The translations under genes and the position numbers were made by a program. Below are positions 1,974-55,588 of a stretch of DNA of 64,000 nucleotides, one piece after another. The stretch comes from a virus. The notes beneath the pieces were generated by a model. That model was not told where the DNA came from and made no database searches. It was given only the letters and a program-made list of their open reading frames with translations. The first letter of the stretch is position 1, and each line of letters opens with the position of its first letter. The DNA lies in IMG/VR virus record IMGVR_UViG_3300045988_105290. One strand, written 5' to 3'.

Positions 1974-2334
1974 TTTACGATTCGAACCGACTTTCTCAGG
2001 CGCACAAGCCCCATAACTCTCCCTCCCCCACACACGTTCACCGCATTATGGGTGGGTGGTTTTGAAAGCGGGATGAAAAATCCAAAAAACCAAAAAGGTC
2101 TTCCAAAAAAATTTTATAAAATCGCTTCGCGTGTGATGTCTCTATTTTAGAAATTTTGCGCGGGCGCTTCGCGCCGTAGTGTCCGGTGACGTGCAGGGGA
2201 GGCAGTAAGGACAAAGCAAGGATTCTGATGGGAGTTAAAGCACGGGTACGCAGGCGGTGCAGAGGCGGCAAAAATTCGTTTGGAGGGAGTCTATACAATG
2301 AAATCAGACAACCAATAGAACGGAGTTGAGCAAG

Positions 2335-7290: not shown

Positions 7291-7574
7291 ATGAACAATC
7301 AGGACTATATCGTTCGCTGCGACCGCGCAGGCGTATTTTTCGGCAAGATCAAGGAACGTAACGGTTTGGAGGTAACCATGACCGATGTGCGTAAGCTGTG
7401 GAGTTGGGACGGCGCGTGCGCCGTGGAGCAGTTGGCGCAGGACGGGACGAAAGAGCCGGGCAACTGCCGCTTTACCGTGACGATTCCGGAAATGACCGTG
7501 CTGGGAGCAATCCAGATTATCCCGTGCACAGACACGGCATCTGCGTCTCTTCGAGATGTAAAGGAGTGGAAGAG

Positions 7575-7578
<4 letters not shown>
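7291..7578 (+). CDS. Hypothetical phage protein
   Basis: 95 aa, AGGAGG RBS. Confidence 0.65.
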
Positions 7579-8317
<739 letters not shown>

Positions 8318-8318
<1 letters not shown>

Positions 8319-11533: not shown

Positions 11534-12025
11534 TCAGAAAGCAAAACTTAAAAAGAAGTCCCGCATGAGTCTGGTAAAGCCCCAGTTGGGATTTGGCACA
11601 TCAAAATGAAAGAAGTAAATGAGGACGATCACGGATAGGATAACAGAAAGATAAATTGCAAACCTTCCAGCTCTCTTATCCTTTCGCAGCTCGCTAATCT
11701 GGCGTTCCTGCATGGAAATGATCTCGTCCTGATGCTGAGCGTTGATGGATTCCACTTCCTCTGACGAATCGGACGAATTATCGTCAGATTCTATTCCACA
11801 AACGTTATCGATCGAGCAATTCAGCGCTTTTGCAATGCGGATAACGACATAAGCGCTGGTCGCCTTGGAGCGGTTGGAAAAGTAATTGTTGACCGTATGA
11901 ACGGAAAGACCGGCGGCATCCGCTATTGCCTGATTCGAAAGGCCGAGCAAGTCTCTTTTGGCTCTCAATCTTTCTTTCAGAGCCAAGCTTTCATCAGATA
12001 CAGTTTCTTCTAAGCATTCCGGCAT
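11534..12025 (-). CDS. Membrane-anchored XRE-family HTH protein
   Basis: 163 aa. LGLSNQAIADAAGLSVHTVNNYF helix-turn-helix plus a C-terminal hydrophobic segment FAIYLSVILSVIVLIYFF. Confidence 0.75.
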   Translation of the reverse strand: MPECLEETVSDESLALKERLRAKRDLLGLSNQAIADAAGLSVHTVNNYFSNRSKATSAYVVIRIAKALNCSIDNVCGIESDDNSSDSSEEVESINAQHQDEIISMQERQISELRKDKRAGRFAIYLSVILSVIVLIYFFHFDVPNPNWGFTRLMRDFFLSFAF

Positions 12026-12378: not shown

Positions 12379-12885
12379 TTACTTATCTTGAGAACGTGCG
12401 ACGAGATCAAAATAATCTCGCACCTTTGCGCGATTCTCAGGCGTCAAGTCGCTGAGATCCAGCACATCGAGTTTGCTGCCCTCCCGGGCGGCAGGCTCTT
12501 TTTTTTCGCCCTTCGGAGAGAGCACGGTGAAATTCCCTTTACTGACAATTACCTGAGAAAATTTTAGATCGCTCAGGGATTCTTCAAGGATTTCAATGTT
12601 CGCCTCAATTTCATTCCTGGCAGCACCTACAGACTTCCCCAATTCCTTACGGAGACACCGTAAGCGGTATTCGGTCACATCAATCTGCGCCTCAACAGTA
12701 AATCCGAGAAGATACTCAGACGTTACGCCGAAATACTCACAGATTTTTCGCAGTTTGTCAGGCCGCGGAACGGACCCGTGTTTCCACTGCGTAACGGAGG
12801 AGGATGCAATTCCAAGTTCTTTCGCTACACCGTTTGGCGTCTTGCCGTCTCTTTCGCATAATGCCTTATATTGGTCAAAAAACAT
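12379..12885 (-). CDS. CI-like XRE-family repressor
   Basis: 168 aa from the ATG after GAGGGAG. GVAKELGIASSSVTQWKHG helix-turn-helix; divergent from the cro-like gene. Confidence 0.8.
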   Translation of the reverse strand: MFFDQYKALCERDGKTPNGVAKELGIASSSVTQWKHGSVPRPDKLRKICEYFGVTSEYLLGFTVEAQIDVTEYRLRCLRKELGKSVGAARNEIEANIEILEESLSDLKFSQVIVSKGNFTVLSPKGEKKEPAAREGSKLDVLDLSDLTPENRAKVRDYFDLVARSQDK

Positions 12886-13123: not shown

Positions 13124-13354
13124 TTGACACTAAAAGATTTGAGATGCAGGGTTCCTTTGTCGCAAGAGATCGTTGCGAGGGCATTGAAGCGCGATCAGTC
13201 AACAATTAGTTGTTGGGAAAGCGGTAAGTGGGCGCCAGCAAAGAAAATCAGACCGACTTTGGCCGCAATGTACCATGTCCCCCTTCCTGTGCTGGAGCGG
13301 TGCATTATGGAGACCTGCGGGAAGGACACCCCGGAGGATTCTGACGAAGCGTGA
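13124..13354 (+). CDS. Cro-like HTH protein (TTG start)
   Basis: 76 aa, AAAGGAG RBS; SQEIVARALKRDQSTISCWESG helix-turn-helix. Confidence 0.7.
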   Translation: MTLKDLRCRVPLSQEIVARALKRDQSTISCWESGKWAPAKKIRPTLAAMYHVPLPVLERCIMETCGKDTPEDSDEA

Positions 13355-13390
13355 CAAAAAGCCCAACCTTCTCAATTTTGGGAAAGCTCC

Positions 13391-13438
13391 TTTCGCACAT
13401 TTTTGTGCGAAACCTTTCGGTCATTTTTGACCGAAAGG
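13391..13438. repeat. Two adjacent palindromes of one family (CCTTTCGnnCA-TTTT-TGnnCGAAAGG)
   Basis: TTTCGCACA-TTTT-TGTGCGAAA (13391-13412) and CCTTTCGGTCA-TTTT-TGACCGAAAGG (13413-13438). Neither is followed by a T-run. Confidence 0.7.
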
Positions 13439-13544
13439 CTATGACGGAAGTTAGAGGTAAAATTGTCAGCAACCAGAAGCGTAGGCTGATATTTGAACCT
13501 GGTCAAATTTGGCCGAGTTCAAAGGATGAAAACGAAAAGGAGAA

Positions 13545-14318
13545 ATGCGAATGAACGAATTGCAGATTTTCAATAACCCGGAGTTTGGGGAGATTAGGGC
13601 CATGGAAATTGATGGGGAACCCTGGTTCGTAGGCAAGGATGTAGCGGCAGCACTTGGCTACAGTGATGCTTTTGGCGCATTGAAAAAGCATATCGATGAA
13701 GATGATAAGCTGGTCTGCCAAATTGACAGTGCGGGTCAAAAGCGTGATGCAACGCTGATTAACCGCTCTGGTGTGTATTCCCTTATCCTTTCCAGCAAAC
13801 TTCCGAATGCGAAGAAGTTTAAGCATTGGGTAACAGCGGAGGTTCTTCCCACTATTGAAAAACATGGTGCTTATATGACCCCGGACACACTGGACAAGAT
13901 GATTGCATCCCCTGAGTTCGGCATCCGGCTTCTGACCGCACTGAAAGAAGAACAAAATAAGAACCGCCATTTGGCGGCGCAAGCGGAGGCGGACAAGCCC
14001 AAGGTCTTGTTTGCGGACAGCGTGGCTGCGTCCCACACGTCCATTCTGATTTTCGACCTTGCGAAGATTTTGAAACAGAACGGCGTGGACATTGGTGGCA
14101 ATCGCCTGTTTGACTGGATGCGGAAGAACGGCTATCTGGTTCGACGGAAAGGCAGCGATTACAATATGCCAACGCAGCGGAGCATGGAGATGGGTTTGTT
14201 TGAGGTGAAGGAGACCAGCGTTTCTCATTCCGACGGACACATCAGCGTGAACAAGACGCCCAAGGTGACGGGCAAGGGGCAGCAGTATTTTATCAACGCA
14301 TTCCTGAGCAAACGATAA
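13545..14318 (+). CDS. Phage antirepressor (Bro-N plus KilAC domains)
   Basis: 257 aa. N-terminus MNELQIFNNPEFGEIRAMEIDGEPWFVGKDVAAALGY; C-terminus ...ILIFDLAKILKQNGVDIGGNRLFDWMRKNGYL. Confidence 0.85.
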   Translation: MRMNELQIFNNPEFGEIRAMEIDGEPWFVGKDVAAALGYSDAFGALKKHIDEDDKLVCQIDSAGQKRDATLINRSGVYSLILSSKLPNAKKFKHWVTAEVLPTIEKHGAYMTPDTLDKMIASPEFGIRLLTALKEEQNKNRHLAAQAEADKPKVLFADSVAASHTSILIFDLAKILKQNGVDIGGNRLFDWMRKNGYLVRRKGSDYNMPTQRSMEMGLFEVKETSVSHSDGHISVNKTPKVTGKGQQYFINAFLSKR

Positions 14319-14848: not shown

Positions 14849-14900
14849 AGAGGGGCTGAGCAACCGGGGAAATCTCGGGACTCAGCCCCTCTTTTATTTT
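14849..14900 (+). terminator. Rho-independent terminator
   Basis: AGAGGGGCTGAG...CTCAGCCCCTCT followed by TTTATTTT. Confidence 0.75.
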
Positions 14901-14921
14901 TACGAAGAAGGAGAGCGCGAA

Positions 14922-15683
14922 ATGAATTTCGAAACGAACGAAAGCTCGAAGGAGCGCCAAGCACGTATCGCAAAGGTGGAACGCCGTGAGCGGCGGAAAA
15001 AGATTCGCAGACGGCGCCGTATCCAGCAGGCGGAGGATGTGGTGACATTTCTCCTCCCGTATCTGGCATTTCTAATGCTGCTGGTCAACATTCTGATTGC
15101 GGTCTGGGTTGTGGGAGAGCTGCTTCACAACATCAGGATGACCGAGACCGCTGTCGAAACGGAAAGCGCGGAATGCCCGACACTCCCCGCTGAGGGTACG
15201 CAGCCGGTTCTGATGATCGATGACGCGATTGTTTTCTCGGATGGCGCGGTGGCGGAAGAGTACGCATACATCCCTTTCCCTTTCAGCGAGGACGTTCCTC
15301 TGAGCTACGAGGAACAGGAAGCGCTTTATGGAGCTTGCGAGGAATTTTCGGTGGACTATCCGTTGATGCTCGCGCTGATCGAACGGGAGACTCACTTCAA
15401 AAATGAGATCGGAGACGGCGGGAAGAGCTATGGCTATTGCCAGATCCAGCCGCGCTGGTGGTCGAAGACGGCGGAAAGCATCGGTGTAACCGACCTGATG
15501 GACCCGGCGGGAAATTTCCGCACAGGCTGCGCAGTGCTGACACATCTGCTGGGCGTTTACGGATGCGGCAACCTGACAGATGCGCTTACAGCTTACAACA
15601 CCGGCCACGGCGGCGCGAGCGAATACGCGAGAGACGTGCTTGAGAAACAGGGAAAGTGGCAGGGAGTGCTGGGCTACTCCTAA
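14922..15683 (+). CDS. Membrane-anchored lytic transglycosylase (SLT domain)
   Basis: 253 aa. Basic N-terminus plus a TM segment; IERETHF, YGYCQI and AYNTGHG motifs. Confidence 0.8.
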   Translation: MNFETNESSKERQARIAKVERRERRKKIRRRRRIQQAEDVVTFLLPYLAFLMLLVNILIAVWVVGELLHNIRMTETAVETESAECPTLPAEGTQPVLMIDDAIVFSDGAVAEEYAYIPFPFSEDVPLSYEEQEALYGACEEFSVDYPLMLALIERETHFKNEIGDGGKSYGYCQIQPRWWSKTAESIGVTDLMDPAGNFRTGCAVLTHLLGVYGCGNLTDALTAYNTGHGGASEYARDVLEKQGKWQGVLGYS

Positions 15684-50854: not shown

Positions 50855-51503
50855 CTCGAACAAGATCAGCGACCTGCGGGAAGATATCGCACAGAACGCG
50901 ATGATATTTGTTGCGTTGTGCAGAGAGGAAGGGCTGAACGTAAAGATCACGCAGACGATGCGCGACGATGCCTACCAGAAGACGCTCTACCAGAAAGGCT
51001 ACGCCAAAACGCCGTATACAACGTTCCACGGGAAGGGGCTTGCGTTCGACATCTGCAAGAACGTGCGCGGGCACGAATACGACGATCTCGCTTTCTTTGC
51101 CCAGTGCGCGAAGATTGGCAAGCGGATGGGCTTTACATGGGGCGGAGACTGGAAGAGTTTTCCCGACAGGCCGCACTTTCAGTGGGACGAGCACAAAAAA
51201 TACAGCGGAACGATGGTGCGCGCGGGCAAGCTGCCGCCCACGATGCCGCGATACGAGGAGGATGACGAGATGGACATTCAAAAGTTCAAGGAGCTGATGC
51301 GCGAATACCGCACGGAGCTGCAAGACAACGACAGCTCCAAGTGGAGCAAGGAAGCACGCGAATGGGCTGTAAAAAACGGCATTATCACGGGCGGCACGCC
51401 GCTGCCCGACGGGCAGCCCAACTACATGTGGGAAGACCTGCTGACGCGCGAGCAGATGGCGACGCTGCTGTATCGCTTTGCCAAGCTGATGGGAAAGGCG
51501 TAA
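50847..51503 (+). CDS. Endolysin, M15-family peptidase with C-terminal wall-binding region
   Basis: 218 aa; FHGKGLAFDI and FTWGGDWKSFPDRPHFQW motifs. Confidence 0.85.
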   Translation: MVNSNKISDLREDIAQNAMIFVALCREEGLNVKITQTMRDDAYQKTLYQKGYAKTPYTTFHGKGLAFDICKNVRGHEYDDLAFFAQCAKIGKRMGFTWGGDWKSFPDRPHFQWDEHKKYSGTMVRAGKLPPTMPRYEEDDEMDIQKFKELMREYRTELQDNDSSKWSKEAREWAVKNGIITGGTPLPDGQPNYMWEDLLTREQMATLLYRFAKLMGKA

Positions 51504-51506
51504 GCC

Positions 51507-51881
51507 ATGCAGGGCGATATGAGAGGCAAAAGAAGAAACCACCGCAAAAGCCGCTCAGACGCGCTGAGAGCGCATTTAAAATCGCTCGGGTTTACCAATA
51601 GGCTCGCCCTCTATCTCGTCGCACTGCTCACCGCAGGGCTTGCAGGAGGGTTCCTGCTCGCCAAGTGGAGCATCGAGGCGAGATATACGGGGGCGCTGGC
51701 ATGCTACACGGTGGTTTTTACGCCGATCGGAACGGCGCTGGGCGCGGTGCTGGGGCGCGTGGTGAAAAAGAACATGGAGGAAAACACCGGCGCAGACGGC
51801 GAGGGCATTGTATATGCCGCCGCCAAAGCCTGCGGATTTTCCGAAGCGGATGACATCAGCGAGAACAGCCCGCCAATTTAA
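51507..51881 (+). CDS. Membrane protein (lysis accessory or exclusion function unknown)
   Basis: 124 aa. Basic N-terminus and two or three TM segments. Confidence 0.5.
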   Translation: MQGDMRGKRRNHRKSRSDALRAHLKSLGFTNRLALYLVALLTAGLAGGFLLAKWSIEARYTGALACYTVVFTPIGTALGAVLGRVVKKNMEENTGADGEGIVYAAAKACGFSEADDISENSPPI

Positions 51882-51897
51882 GCAAGATTTTAAACAA

Positions 51898-51936
51898 GAA
51901 ACGCACGGAAGGCTATCCTCCGTGCGTTTCGTTTTT
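51898..51936 (+). terminator. Rho-independent terminator closing the late operon
   Basis: GAAACGCACGGA / TCCGTGCGTTTC followed by GTTTTTATTTTT. Confidence 0.8.
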
Positions 51937-51943
51937 ATTTTTA

Positions 51944-52948
51944 TCAATTTGCGGCGGCGAGGCGGTCAAGATTGCGCTGCGCCTGATAGTCGCGCTCGGC
52001 GATGACTCTTTGGGCGCTGCCGCGTCCGGCGCGCGCCATGAGCTTGCCTGAATAAATCTGCGTGGTCTGCGGGTTTGCGTGCCCAAGCTTTGCTTGCAGG
52101 GCGTAATGGTCCATGCCGGAGTTCAGGTCGATGCGAGCGCCAACATGGCGCAGATCATGCGAGCGGATATTGTGAACGCCGGTGACGGCAAAGACGTGCC
52201 GCTCGACCACGCCGGAAAGCCACTGCTGCGTGCCGACCCTCCACGCGCCGGAACGCATGGTGCCGAAAAGGGGAGCGGATGCGGGTACATCCTGCGGGCG
52301 GATGCCCGAGGCAAGATAAGCGCGGACGGCGGTCTGCGCGATGAGGGGGAAATCAACCGTGCGGAATTTGTCGCCCTTGCCGTGGTCGACGGTGATCTGC
52401 TCGGACTGAAAATCGAGGTCGGCAAGCGAGAGGGTGCGAAGCTCGGAATTGCGCAGCTCGGTAGAGAGGAGCAAAACGACAATGGCGTAATTGCGCGGCC
52501 AGTTCTCCGGGTGCGTGGTGACGACGGGGGAGTTGCGCCATAGGTGCATGACCTGCTCATCGGTGAGAAGGAGATCGTAGGGGCGCGCGTCGATCTTCCG
52601 CATGGCGGGGAAGAGCATGAGGGAGACTGGATTTGACGAATAAAACTGCTCGCCGCCAAGGTCGGGAGAGCTGGCAAAGGTAAAGAACGCGCGCAGGACG
52701 ACCAGATGCTGATGCACTGTGCGGGCGGCACAGCCGCGGTCTAACAGCGCGTCCCGATACGCCTGAATGGTGGTAAAGGTCGGGTCATCACGAAAGAGAT
52801 CGGAGGACACAAAAAAATCATAGAACGAGGTAATGATATGGGAGTAGTCGGTCAGCGTTTTTGGCGCGATGCCGGTGGACTGGCAGTTGCGCAGCCAGAG
52901 GTCGGAACTCTTGAGAAAACGCCGCTCGGCGGCAGAGGTAACAGGCAT
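51944..52948 (-). CDS. Second tyrosine recombinase (XerC/D-like)
   Basis: 334 aa. SAM-like N-terminal domain; RSHDLRHVGA...LGHANPQTTQIYSG catalytic region. Confidence 0.85.
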   Translation of the reverse strand: MPVTSAAERRFLKSSDLWLRNCQSTGIAPKTLTDYSHIITSFYDFFVSSDLFRDDPTFTTIQAYRDALLDRGCAARTVHQHLVVLRAFFTFASSPDLGGEQFYSSNPVSLMLFPAMRKIDARPYDLLLTDEQVMHLWRNSPVVTTHPENWPRNYAIVVLLLSTELRNSELRTLSLADLDFQSEQITVDHGKGDKFRTVDFPLIAQTAVRAYLASGIRPQDVPASAPLFGTMRSGAWRVGTQQWLSGVVERHVFAVTGVHNIRSHDLRHVGARIDLNSGMDHYALQAKLGHANPQTTQIYSGKLMARAGRGSAQRVIAERDYQAQRNLDRLAAAN

Positions 52949-52995
52949 GGTCGGCTCCTTTCAAGCGGTGGGGACGGGCTGGATTGGCCGGGGCG

Positions 52996-53211
52996 TTATG
53001 CCCCAGCCTTGACAAAATCCTGTTTCAGTACCAGCTCAACGCCACATTCGGAAACATGAATGTAATCGACGACAAAATCACCATACGCGGCCATTGCCAA
53101 AGGGTCGAGCGTATTCAGCTCGCTTGCAGCGCCGCCGCTGGCGAGGTAAACCTTTTCGGCAACGCCGCCGCCAAACTCGATGCTATTTGCAAGACTTTTC
53201 ACTGTAAACAT
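52996..53211 (-). CDS. Hypothetical 71-aa protein co-transcribed with the recombinase
   Basis: TAAGGAGAAAATACT-ATG RBS. Confidence 0.55.
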   Translation of the reverse strand: MFTVKSLANSIEFGGGVAEKVYLASGGAASELNTLDPLAMAAYGDFVVDYIHVSECGVELVLKQDFVKAGA

Positions 53212-53237
53212 AGTATTTTCTCCTTATAAGCTTAAAT

Positions 53238-54041
53238 TCAGTTTTCTGCGCCTGACGTGCGGGCGGGAAGATCGCGGCGGCGTGCGGCAGCATATCGGTT
53301 CAGGAAATATTTTTGTCCCTTTGGTGTTACTTTGCTGACACGATCAATCACCGCTCCATCTTTGGAGATACGAGGTGATTCTTTTATGAAGAACAGGCCG
53401 AGATCCATAGCTCGCTGAGTCGGCATATTCTTGTCGCTGCCCTCTTTGATGAGATACCCATCGGAACGAAGCTGCTCATAGAGCCGCTTTTCCCCAGTGT
53501 CCACGCCGTTTTGCTTGAGGATCTTCGCAAGGTCGCGGACGAGAATGTTCGTGTCGCAGCTCGTGATGGCATTGGCGAAGCGGACGGCGGGCGCGTCGGC
53601 CTTTACCTTTTCCTCAAGAGCCTTTCGGCGCTCCTGCTCGGATTTCAGCTCGGTCAACAGACGGATGCCAAACTCCGGGGAGGAAATCATCTGGTCGAGC
53701 GTGTCAGGCGTCATGTAGGCGCCATTGCGCCGGATAGTGGGGATCACATCATCCGCGATTTTTGCCTGAAATGCTTCAGCTGCTTCGTTCTTCGCTTTCA
53801 TGGCAAGGCGGTAGAAGATGTTTTCGGGGATAAATTCAGGCAAATCGCCATCGCAACTTGTTGCGATGCCCAGCTCTGCAAGGTATTTCTTTACTGTGCG
53901 CCATCTTACGCACTCATTTCCGCTTGCCGCAATTTCGGTGAAGCCGAGTCCCCGCGCCACGGTTTCCAGCCTGAGATAGACCGTGCCGTTGCGCTCGTAG
54001 CAGTCGATGCCATTAATGTTGAAAACTTGCAATTCGTTCAT
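53238..54041 (-). CDS. Antirepressor (Bro-N plus KilAC), paralog of 13545-14318
   Basis: 267 aa; MNELQVFNINGIDCYERNG... and ...ILVRDLAKILKQNGVDTGEKRLYEQLRSDGYL. Confidence 0.85.
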   Translation of the reverse strand: MNELQVFNINGIDCYERNGTVYLRLETVARGLGFTEIAASGNECVRWRTVKKYLAELGIATSCDGDLPEFIPENIFYRLAMKAKNEAAEAFQAKIADDVIPTIRRNGAYMTPDTLDQMISSPEFGIRLLTELKSEQERRKALEEKVKADAPAVRFANAITSCDTNILVRDLAKILKQNGVDTGEKRLYEQLRSDGYLIKEGSDKNMPTQRAMDLGLFFIKESPRISKDGAVIDRVSKVTPKGQKYFLNRYAAARRRDLPARTSGAEN

Positions 54042-54065
54042 CTATACAATTCCTCCATAACAGGC

Positions 54066-54094
54066 TTGACCTTTGGAGGCGGGTGCATTAGAAT
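54066..54094 (+). promoter_or_regulatory. Near-consensus sigma70-type promoter, antisense to the operon
   Basis: TTGACC - 17 nt - TAGAAT, inside the RHH-antirepressor intercistronic gap. Confidence 0.6.
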
Positions 54095-54100
54095 ATTTAC

Positions 54101-54174
54101 ACCGCTCCCAAAGGGGGCGACCAACTCCTTCACCGTTCTGTTTGCGAGACTAGCGGCGGGGGAGTTGCCTTTTT
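54101..54174 (+). ncRNA. Predicted antisense small RNA 1 (about 74 nt)
   Basis: Starts about 7 nt after the -10 box. 5' hairpin CGCTCCC-AAA-GGGGGCG; terminal stem CAACTCC/GGAGTTG plus T5 overlapping the RHH stop codon; no ORF. Confidence 0.45.
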
Positions 54175-54346
54175 ACTTTTTCAGCCCATTGTAGATGGCC
54201 TTAATTCCATCACGGATGATTTCAGCCTTCGTTTTGCCGGTAACCTCCGAGCAATAATTAAGTCTGTCAACATCCTCTTGCGAGAGTCGGACTCGGGTAT
54301 TTAAGGTCTTAGGGTCATCGGTGGGCCTGCCGATCTGTGGAGACAT
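54173..54346 (-). CDS. Arc/CopG-like ribbon-helix-helix protein (RHH-1)
   Basis: 57 aa; TRVRLSQEDVDRLNYCSEVTGKTKAEIIRDGI. Confidence 0.7.
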   Translation of the reverse strand: MSPQIGRPTDDPKTLNTRVRLSQEDVDRLNYCSEVTGKTKAEIIRDGIKAIYNGLKK

Positions 54347-54428
54347 AAATGCACCTACCTTTCGTATCCACAAAAATAATATATCATTTGTGGATACACA
54401 AGTCAAGAGTTTTTTATATGCTTCTGAT

Positions 54429-55241
54429 TCAGTCGATGCGCGCTGCGTTCAGCTCGGTGATGCGGCAGCGCAGGATGCTTTCAAAGATGGCGCGCAGTTT
54501 CCGATCCTGAGAAACGATGGTGAGTTTGTTGACAGCTCTGCGCTGCGTGGCCGTGGCTCCAGATGCCGCCATTCTGTTTTGCAGGCGGGTAAGACGCTGC
54601 TGGAGGTCTGCGCCCGCGGCGCGCTCCAGTTCCTCGTAAATGTCGTGGCGGAATTTCTGGTGATTGAGTCCGAAATGCTGCACAATGGCGTTGATCGCGC
54701 GGTTGGCGGATTCCTGCCAGTTGTCTCCCGATGCAAGCGGGGCAGACCACGCGGCGGCGAGGTTGTCCATGCGCTTTTCGTGCTGCTCGAAGCGCCCGGA
54801 AAGCTCGTCCATACGGCGCTCCTGCTCCTGCTGGCGCATCTCGATACCGATAAGTGCCTGAAGCTGGGGAGAGAGGGACGCAAACTGAGAGTTGGTCGCC
54901 TTGGCTCGGAAATATCCGTTGATAAGTTCGCGCTGGACTTTCCACGCGAGATCGTCGGTAAAGGATTTTACCAGCATAAGATAGCCGGATTCTGTGATGA
55001 GGGTGATGTCGTTCTGCTGGCGGGCATCCATCTCTCCGATCGCCGTCCGAAATTCGGACGGCGTTATTTTGAAGTAATCTTCACCCTCGATAAAGTGTTC
55101 ACGGTTATCGTTGAACCGCTTGCGGGCAGTCCCGTCCGGTCTGCCATGCACGGCGTCGATATCCTTGAAGGTGACGACGCGCTGACCGGAGAATTCCTTG
55201 ACGAGAACCTGCGTGTTGTTAATGATAGTCAATTCGTTCAT
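54429..55241 (-). CDS. ORF6N/KilA-N-type antirepressor-like protein
   Basis: 270 aa from the ATG after AAGGAGC; QRVVTFKDIDAVHGRPDGTARKRFNDNREHFIEGEDYF. Confidence 0.8.
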   Translation of the reverse strand: MNELTIINNTQVLVKEFSGQRVVTFKDIDAVHGRPDGTARKRFNDNREHFIEGEDYFKITPSEFRTAIGEMDARQQNDITLITESGYLMLVKSFTDDLAWKVQRELINGYFRAKATNSQFASLSPQLQALIGIEMRQQEQERRMDELSGRFEQHEKRMDNLAAAWSAPLASGDNWQESANRAINAIVQHFGLNHQKFRHDIYEELERAAGADLQQRLTRLQNRMAASGATATQRRAVNKLTIVSQDRKLRAIFESILRCRITELNAARID

Positions 55242-55337
55242 TTGAAAAGCTCCTTTTCTTGTAGATACTTCTATTATATAGACCGCATCCAAGTTGATTT
55301 TTGCCGTCATCGTGGGATAAAAATACCCCAAAATGGC

Positions 55338-55367
55338 TTGACACACGCGGAGCTTTTCGCCTATAAT
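55338..55367 (+). promoter_or_regulatory. Consensus sigma70-type promoter, antisense to the operon
   Basis: TTGACA - 18 nt - TATAAT. Confidence 0.65.
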
Positions 55368-55373
55368 GATTTA

Positions 55374-55446
55374 GACAAAGCCCTCGCGGTTTTGGTCGCA
55401 TAGATGCTCACTCCGTCCGGCAAGATGATAGTGGGCATCTATTTTT
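55374..55446 (+). ncRNA. Predicted antisense small RNA 2 (about 72 nt)
   Basis: 13-bp terminal stem ATAGATGCTCACT / AGTGGGCATCTAT followed by TTTT, overlapping the RHH-2 stop codon; no ORF. Confidence 0.5.
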
Positions 55447-55588
55447 ACTTCAGCTGATTTTCAAGATATTCCGAGCAGGCAATGCGGACGACGGCGGCAA
55501 GGGATATGTTTTTCCGGTCAGCTTCCGCCTTTAAGCGTTCGTACAGCTCGGGGGGTATCATGATATTCAGTGCTTTGCTGTTTTTCAT
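55445..55588 (-). CDS. Arc/CopG-like ribbon-helix-helix protein (RHH-2)
   Basis: 47 aa, MKNSKALNIMIPPELYERLKAEADRKNISLAAVVRIACSEYLENQLK, AAGGAGG RBS. Below the ORF-track cutoff. Confidence 0.7.
   Translation of the reverse strand: MKNSKALNIMIPPELYERLKAEADRKNISLAAVVRIACSEYLENQLK

Follow-up and report, generated by a model that had tools for sequence, protein, structure and literature searches.

The control of an antirepressor by an antisense RNA is textbook material and, to our knowledge, is known from only a few enterobacterial phages (sar of P22, c4 of P1 and P7). The sar RNA represses synthesis of the P22 antirepressor, c4 controls an antirepressor and sets heteroimmunity, and the lambda RNA OOP overlaps the 3' end of the gene upstream (PMC12197685); in the plasmid pMV158, RNAII inhibits translation of the downstream gene (PMC4485353). 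In this work we analysed a stretch of viral DNA of 64,000 nucleotides (IMG/VR record IMGVR_UViG_3300045988_105290; the whole stretch is referred to as the window), in which positions 51944-55588 include two small genes for ribbon-helix-helix (RHH) proteins, each followed by an antirepressor-like gene and separated from it by a gap that carries a promoter on the opposite strand. An earlier note on this DNA, made from the letters alone, had likened the region to immI of P22; the likeness stands in its logic (repressor, convergent short antisense RNA, antirepressor) and in its geometry, and fails as to homology. The explanation that we favour, and judge probable as a whole, is that the region consists of two regulatory modules that belong to one family, lie in tandem and have a promoter each; in both of them an antisense RNA would control the antirepressor-like gene through an indirect switch at its Shine-Dalgarno (SD) sequence and, together with the RHH repressor, would form a double lock.

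Results

Module 2 opens with RHH-2 (55445-55588, minus strand), whose product of 47 amino acids (aa) is a CopG-type RHH repressor that matches Pfam RHH_1 with 21.1 bits, slightly over the cut-off; it also matches Arc-like repressor phrogs, and its match to the ORF56 copy-control family falls below the cut-off. The gene that follows is an ORF6N-domain antirepressor-like gene (54429-55241, minus strand; 270 aa; ORF6N E 1.5e-18). Module 1 pairs RHH-1 (54173-54346, minus strand), encoding a 57-aa RHH repressor of the MSPxxGRP family that matches phrog_876 ('transcriptional repressor') at E 5e-14 and RHH_1 with 17.2 bits, below the cut-off, with a Bro-N/KilAC antirepressor-like gene (53238-54041, minus strand; 267 aa; Pfam Bro-N and ANT). 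These are four of six minus-strand genes, all of which lie where the earlier note had placed them. The gaps between RHH and antirepressor-like genes measure 131 nucleotides (nt) in module 1 and 203 nt in module 2. Each contains a near-consensus promoter on the plus strand, namely TTGACC-17-TAGAAT at 54066-54094 (antisense promoter 1, ten of 12 consensus matches) and TTGACA-18-TATAAT at 55338-55367 (antisense promoter 2, 12 of 12), and about 70 nt past the presumed start comes a terminator in the form of a long hairpin and a T-run lying over the RHH stop codon; both the promoters and the terminators had been predicted and are confirmed here. The predicted antisense RNA 1 (54101-54179, plus strand, about 79 nt) is composed of hairpin 1 (54103-54119) and a terminator hairpin (54122-54167) with the apical loop UUUGCG at 54141-54146, and its T-run (54170-54174) overlaps the RHH-1 stop codon (54173-54175). 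The predicted antisense RNA 2 (55374-55450, plus strand, about 77 nt) has the same parts, with hairpin 1 at 55374-55397, the terminator hairpin at 55400-55442, the apical loop CGGCAA at 55418-55423 and a T-run (55442-55446) overlapping the RHH-2 stop codon (55445-55447). The folding energies are -35.1 kcal/mol for antisense RNA 1 (z = -4.1) and -29.6 kcal/mol for antisense RNA 2 (z = -3.8).

Sites with at least ten of 12 promoter consensus matches occur only 11 times in the window, both strands counted, and a strong hairpin with a T-run follows 40-120 nt later in three of the 11, which include both antisense promoters. The third, a plus-strand candidate at 12388-12507, was judged to be a chance combination, since its -10 sequence is AATAAT and lies inside a coding sequence; its terminator serves convergent genes of the immunity region, and relatives were not part of that judgement. 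Distances to the antirepressor start codons are 25 and 97 nt for the antisense promoters and 60 and 133 nt for the starts of the predicted RNAs, upstream in each case, and the RNAs run in the direction away from these codons. These coordinates bear out the earlier claim that the RNAs would leave the antirepressor ribosome-binding sites (RBSs) uncovered.

The six genes had previously been read as one operon. Each RHH gene has its own minus-strand promoter with operator repeats, which points instead to two autoregulated units. The module-2 promoter (TTGACA-17-TATTCT, 55612-55640, minus strand) has TTGTRG repeats around its -10 box, within 55600-55640, and the -10 box of the module-1 promoter (TTGACT-17-TATATT, 54378-54406, minus strand) is flanked by a perfect inverted repeat, GTATCCACAAA and its complement (54364-54374 and 54387-54397, minus strand), which is the presumed RHH-1 operator and was found nowhere else in the window. 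Repeats flank the -10 box of the RHH promoters in the window and in 18 relatives and vary together with the RHH sequence, with lineage-specific operator repeats such as GTCACGCAT, TGTACCCCAC, TGGAACTC and TTGTAGCAACA. This pattern is the signature expected of autoregulated RHH repressors, which would bind these repeats as operators. No terminator was found in the window between the modules or before the downstream genes, and thus read-through from one module into the other is possible. Relatives carry one or two modules in varying combinations.

The two antirepressor proteins and promoter patterns served as queries in the search for relatives. An AT-rich pattern of 16 nt, run over IMG/VR, gave mostly chance matches (about 12 of 120 were real), a 21-base promoter pattern gave eight matches in genome contigs, three of them real, and a nucleotide search of the phage collection detected no close relative, matching only the neighbouring PD-lambda-1 gene. 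The relatives belong to metagenome-assembled genomes (MAGs) of Oscillospiraceae, Clostridia and Defluviitaleaceae and to many IMG/VR gut contigs. The search for the same layout in related phages, which had been proposed as a check, recovered 22 distinct versions of the gap element, which form group A, like module 1, and group B, like module 2. On the strand opposite the genes all versions have in common a -35 and a -10 box at canonical spacing, then a short 5' hairpin, a terminator hairpin of 13-17 bp and a T-run over the stop codon of the RHH gene. The -10/start region TAGAATATTTAYA is invariant in 17 group-A variants, in which the hairpin sequences differ, and antisense promoter 2 is kept in relatives L001, L015, L032 and L035.

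The terminator stem has 13 pairs, 11 of which show compensatory double changes, and 89% of its cells are paired compared with 69% in shuffled versions (0/500) and 33-51% with slid partners. The antisense strand outfolds its complement in 20 of the 22 versions, by a mean of 7.6 kcal/mol, and can form 89 G-U pairs against 26 on the complement. Hairpin 1 was misregistered by MAFFT, as a result of which RNAalifold recovered the terminator stem alone, and was therefore tabulated separately: 14 of 19 variants have a GNRA loop (GAAA, GCAA or GUGA, on four different stems), on the antisense strand only, where the opposite strand would read UUUC, UUGC or UCAC. On this comparative evidence we consider it very likely that the antisense RNAs are real.

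At the apex of the terminator hairpin there is a hexaloop, which in 12 of the 22 versions matches CGCCAA or its complement TTGGCG exactly and in 18 with at most one mismatch, compared with 0.1 and 1.8 respectively in composition-matched shuffles. The ColIb-P9 Inc RNA has CGCCAA/UUGGCG as its loop motif, to judge from how Asano et al. (1998) is titled and from the sequences of IncK RNAI given in PMC10724649. Antisense systems that act by loop-loop contact generally have a YUNR U-turn in the recognition loop of one partner or the other (PMC4485353). Two of the relatives, L180 and L205, have this hairpin with the same stem, yet their apical 19 nt (TCCGTCCGCCAAGATAGAG) are exactly inverted, one being the reverse complement of the other. 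This flip, seen on the antisense strand in the 4285 region of L180 and the 5478 region of L205, moves the CGCCAA loop from the antisense to the sense RNA, and therefore either one could display UUGGCG.

A covariance model built from group A (R1; matches with E below about 0.05 were taken as significant) scored antisense RNA 1 with 55.7 bits, and all of its significant matches lie on the antisense strand and directly abut the 3' ends of RHH genes. Group B gave weak full-length matches, among them one at 55362-55453 in the window. Since the group-A model thus extends, if weakly, over the full length of group B, the two RNAs of the window are diverged members of one family. This departs from the earlier statement that they share no sequence, as do their common architecture and loop motif and the natural recombinants, which swap RNA halves. 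The recombination breakpoints fall between hairpin 1 and the terminator hairpin: above 55395, a position between these two parts of antisense RNA 2, L001 no longer matches the window. L015 diverges below 55214, 27 nt into the ORF6N gene, and has a Rha N-terminal domain in place of ORF6N. Rfam gave no family at E <= 1 in 51500-58500, and the literature search found no paper describing this arrangement in Gram-positive phages; the RNA family is apparently undescribed and conserved in phages of gut Clostridia.

In each antisense promoter the spacer repeats, inverted and imperfectly, about the first 16 nt of the RNA, and this repeat covaries across lineages (CCGAAAGG, CCCGCAAGG, CCATCAGG, CCGTGAGG, CCCAAAGG). 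It is not an RHH operator, since it is unchanged under three different RHH proteins. On the mRNA, the target strand for the 5' part of the antisense RNA, to which it is complementary (strand 2), is followed by the complement of the promoter spacer (strand 3), which is C/U-rich (CACCUCC... in relatives) and has the character of an anti-SD sequence, able to pair either with strand 2 or with the SD (strand 4). In module 1 the anti-SD strand CCUCCAAAGG (54070-54079, minus strand) may pair alternatively with the upstream RNA-target strand or with the SD GGAGG (54052-54056, minus strand), the switch elements spanning 54052-54079. In module 2 the anti-SD strand GAAAAGCUCC (55349-55358, minus strand) and the SD region of the ORF6N gene GGAGCUUUUC (55244-55253, minus strand) show perfect complementarity over 10 nt. 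With the antisense target masked in folding calculations, opening the SD and the AUG became more costly in each of the 18 leaders; for 14 the rise was 4-9 kcal/mol, with values of 8.3 kcal/mol for module 1 and 5.0 kcal/mol for module 2; when the middle segment was dinucleotide-shuffled, the change was about 0 +/- 1.5 kcal/mol (0/40) in eight of nine representatives. In relatives with a short leader the hairpins of strands 3 and 4 are strong, with energies of -16 to -23.5 kcal/mol where shuffled sequences give -8 +/- 2.4. Anti-SD and SD covary: in L205 CCUCCCG faces CGGGAGG, and in L279 CCCCCCG faces GGGGG. Thermodynamic calculation and covariation together point to an indirect translational switch at the RBS.

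The RHH gene and antisense RNA also precede genes of other kinds. Without a recombinase nearby they stand before a Rha-family protein gene in L219 and before a gene for an unknown protein in L205 and L279. In L278 (2384-2900, a Defluviitaleaceae MAG) an RHH-2-like gene, a group-A antisense promoter, two hairpins and a terminator are followed by a gene for a ParE-family toxin.

Downstream of module 1 lie a 71-aa acidic open reading frame (ORF; 52996-53211, minus strand), which matches no family and has three relatives among 5.8 billion proteins, none annotated, and an Xer-like tyrosine recombinase gene (51944-52948, minus strand), which has the catalytic motifs and falls under every NCBIfam cut-off. 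Both could be co-transcribed with module 1 here, and among relatives they are frequent neighbours and not constant parts; many relatives have the two genes as a pair. A terminator with a 14-bp hairpin (51898-51930) separates the recombinase gene from the convergent lysis genes. The window is a temperate phage or prophage: genes for an integrase and a CI-like repressor (the latter at 11534-12025) occupy 10.4-12.0 kb, the structural genes are on the plus strand, and an endolysin gene and a holin-like gene, ending at 51881, precede the modules, which lie in the accessory arm beyond the lysis genes. Searches for att sites between the integrase end and the right arm gave nothing that would mark the prophage borders. 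On the other side RHH-2 is divergent from a plus-strand gene for PD-lambda-1 anti-phage defence (55675-56979; DUF4041 and T5orf172; PADLOC E 1.6e-149), with which it has a promoter region in common. Relatives of the PD-lambda-1 gene also adjoin the cassette in L015, L030, L035-L039 and L091.

Beyond the defence gene, at 57078-57863, there is a third Bro-N/KilAC gene, and a fourth antirepressor-like gene of this type lies in the early region (13545-14318, plus strand, within 13124-14318), where it is preceded by a helix-turn-helix (HTH) gene, not an RHH gene, and by two hairpins (13384-13443) without an antisense promoter. The gapless pairing of HTH and antirepressor genes seen at 13124-14318 is also found in L016-L026. 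Three minus-strand tRNA genes (Glu-UUC, Gln-UUG and Gly-UCC) are located at 60225-60866, and an ORF at 7398-8318 contains a 12/18-nt tandem repeat (7573-7884) in about 15 copies that overlap one another, implying a repetitive protein. A repeat of 22-34 nt, GGCGGCAAAAATTCGTTTGGAG..., is present in three copies, each just 5' of a gene, at 2264-2285 (plus strand), 57021-57054 (plus strand) and 61462-61497 (minus strand). Its inverted copies at 57021 and 61476 flank 4.4 kb containing the third Bro-N/KilAC gene and the three tRNA genes, and it could be either a shared regulatory element or a recombination site.

Discussion

The mechanism that we propose would begin with a sigma-A promoter, with its operator repeats, driving the small RHH repressor gene, the product of which probably represses its own synthesis. 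The RHH transcript would continue through a structured leader of 130-200 nt into the ORF6N gene in module 2 or the Bro-N/KilAC gene in module 1. Within the leader the near-consensus promoter on the opposite strand would produce an RNA of about 77-80 nt with two hairpins, which would stop at its intrinsic terminator with the U-tract over the RHH stop codon and would be fully complementary to the part of the leader next to the RHH gene. Recognition may start with loop-loop kissing at the terminator hairpin, as suggested by the CGCCAA/UUGGCG loop of the relatives, and pairing would then take away the strand that normally holds the anti-SD segment, which, once freed, would bind the antirepressor SD and block translation. 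Cleavage of the duplex and promoter collision may contribute to the repression. The net effect would be a double lock, one of protein and one of RNA, on a potentially dangerous gene.

It should be noted that several points weigh against this explanation. The loops of the window itself match the hexaloop at five of six positions each, CGGCAA in RNA 2 and UUUGCG in RNA 1, the latter in inverted orientation. The hairpin of strands 3 and 4 is weak on its own in module 1 (-12.2 kcal/mol against -9.1 +/- 2.5 in shuffles), and L001, L029, L032 and L035 show little predicted switch effect, such that the mechanism in these lineages may differ or be mixed. For both window modules the mean unpaired probability of the SD was the same in the free and in the RNA-bound leader, and the opening energy alone changed; since the mean unpaired probability did not discriminate, the comparison was based on opening energies, controlled by shuffling. 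Most of the relatives stem from a single metagenome collection, and they are not independent of one another phylogenetically, which means that the shuffle statistics overstate significance. Finally, the ORF6N and Bro-N/KilAC genes are regarded as putative antirepressor genes solely from their annotation (PHROG 'anti-repressor').

The same leaders would look much alike if the antisense promoters were real and acted mainly by transcriptional interference, in which case polymerase collision or occlusion would reduce antirepressor transcription, the short RNA would be a by-product and the leader structures would serve mRNA stability. The promoters are near-consensus and meet the sense transcript head-on, and the four lineages without a predicted RBS switch also agree with this reading, yet interference alone leaves unexplained the two-hairpin fold, the GNRA loops, the CGCCAA hexaloop and the covarying terminator stem, as well as the covariation of anti-SD and SD, and we consider it improbable. 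Attenuation or cleavage of the RNase III type in the leader (compare pT181, pIP501 and lambda OOP/cII), triggered by the antisense RNA in place of a translation block, also appears to us quite unlikely. In its favour, this mode of action is common in Gram-positive plasmids, and in the leaders of L029, L032 and L035 the sense strand forms a strong hairpin with a U-rich stretch after it; for cleavage there is the precedent of OOP, which works via RNase III (PMC12197685). Both leaders of the window, on the other hand, are devoid of a sense-strand hairpin with a U-run, and the predicted alternative pairing lands on the SD and not on a terminator. That there is no antisense RNA at all, and that the promoter- and terminator-like sites reflect chance or the needs of the sense strand (leader hairpins, a 3' stabiliser of the RHH mRNA), is the least credible of these readings. 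The inverted repeats around the -10 box do form sense-strand hairpins too, but all variants of both groups have the two hexamers at canonical spacing, the bias in G-U pairs and in stability is strongly towards the antisense strand, GNRA loops are confined to that strand, the T-run always follows the hairpin on it, and the combination of promoter and terminator is rare in the window.

A reading of another kind makes the modules the control end of an element centred on the recombinase, with the antirepressor coupled to rearrangement or excision by the recombinase and the 71-aa protein. Genes for both proteins follow the antirepressor modules in the same direction, and no terminator intervenes, in this window as well as in L001-L015, L174 and L253; relatives of the enzyme occur within about 2 kb in L029, L032 and L040, and a 34-nt inverted repeat pair is found nearby at 57021 and 61462. 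Set against this, the cassette is present without a recombinase in L205, L219, L262, L278 and L279, no repeats fit as recombination sites around 51.9-55.7 kb, the enzyme is generic Xer-like and the 71-aa protein is acidic, unannotated and rare, all of which makes this reading very unlikely. An integron-like or invertase role of the recombinase was rejected, given the wrong orientation, the failure to find sites and the fact that the enzyme is not a constant neighbour. The earlier suggestion that immunity is linked to DNA rearrangement is accordingly not supported.

If two modules with an anti-SD switch are indeed what the region holds, the logic of P22 would now be met in phages of gut Clostridia and Oscillospiraceae, built from unrelated parts and duplicated within one genome. 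Two features would set it apart, namely an antisense promoter whose spacer doubles as the anti-SD strand of the sense leader, which makes the predicted mechanism testable, and a kissing loop of the plasmid type, CGCCAA, which might reflect either convergence or a link with plasmid copy-control RNAs. The antisense promoter and the 5' hairpin are near-identical across phages with different RHH specificities, and therefore the RNA of a resident prophage could silence the antirepressor of an incoming relative in trans. Were this true, it would amount to a layer of RNA-based heteroimmunity like that of P1/P7 c4, and the presence of two modules per phage would widen the immunity coverage. This idea of RNA-based immunity belongs to a tentative and rather doubtful generalisation, in which RHH gene, antisense RNA and anti-SD leader would make up a portable 'double-lock' cassette, shared by recombination among phages of gut Clostridia and linked in evolution to the plasmid copy-control cassettes CopG/RNAII and Inc RNA. 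Such a cassette may gate potentially harmful cargo, including the ORF6N, Bro-N/KilAC and Rha antirepressor-like genes, the ParE toxin and others. The region offers a tractable entry to the control of induction and cross-immunity in abundant, uncultured temperate phages of the gut, and it could possibly serve synthetic biology as a compact, tightly off expression module for Firmicutes.

Comparison with known systems

In the P22 record arc occupies 14861-15022 and sar 15021-15090 on the other strand, with its terminator overlapping the arc stop codon; sar folds as a 5' hairpin and a 14-bp terminator hairpin (z = -5.3). The window resembles immI in having an RHH repressor gene directly upstream of and co-directional with an antirepressor gene, in the intercistronic antisense RNA of about 70 nt with two hairpins and a terminator overlapping the RHH stop codon, and in the module's being a 'moron' of the late or accessory genome region (PMC2629481). 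It differs in the position of the RNA, given that the sar promoter lies inside ant and that sar adjoins the ant start codon and covers the ant RBS, whereas the RBSs of the window are uncovered. The parts differ as well. The Rfam sar family RF00262 scores P22 with 97.8 bits, and nothing is found at E <= 1 in 51500-58500. Arc and Mnt match Pfam PF03869 at about 1e-30, while the RHH proteins of the window match RHH_1, which is CopG-type, and not Pfam Arc, contrary to their initial description as Arc-type. Ant is composed of P22_AR_N and P22_AR_C and is unrelated to the ORF6N and Bro-N/KilAC proteins, which gave BLASTP E values against Ant of 0.057 and 3.4. The window modules moreover lack a divergent repressor like Mnt, are duplicated and belong to a Gram-positive host of the Clostridia.

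The copG-rnaII-repB region of pMV158 is an equally close analogue. A CopG-type RHH autorepressor comes first in a bicistronic operon there (PMC4485353), and its putative counterparts here are the RHH genes, with RHH_1 scores above the cut-off for RHH-2 and below it for RHH-1 and with operator-like repeats at both promoters; an intergenic countertranscript matches the leader immediately upstream of the translation signals, which it excludes (PMC4485353); and the hosts are Firmicutes in both cases. The downstream gene is different, repB encoding a replication initiator where the window has ORF6N and Bro-N/KilAC antirepressor-like genes. RNAII is 48 nt long, with a single hairpin and without U-turn loop motifs (PMC4485353), compared with the two hairpins seen here and the CGCCAA loop of the relatives, and an anti-SD switch does not form part of the pMV158 model.

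With the RNAs of the IncI-alpha, IncB, IncK and IncFII plasmids (Inc RNA, RNAI, CopA) the resemblance is in the loop CGCCAA/UUGGCG, exact in 12 of the 22 versions, going by the sequences given in PMC10724649. These plasmid RNAs differ in their hosts and in the genes they control, the loops of the window are one mismatch off, and there is no Rfam match. Lambda OOP/cII and P1-P7 c4/ant are similar in that short phage antisense RNAs tune a regulator of lysis and lysogeny (PMC12197685). OOP, in contrast, acts via RNase III on the gene that it overlaps, and c4 arises by processing of the same transcript and targets the RBS; both are without an RHH partner and the layout seen here. On balance the comparison places the region as a functional analogue of both P22 immI and the CopG/RNAII system of pMV158 rather than as a member of either by homology.

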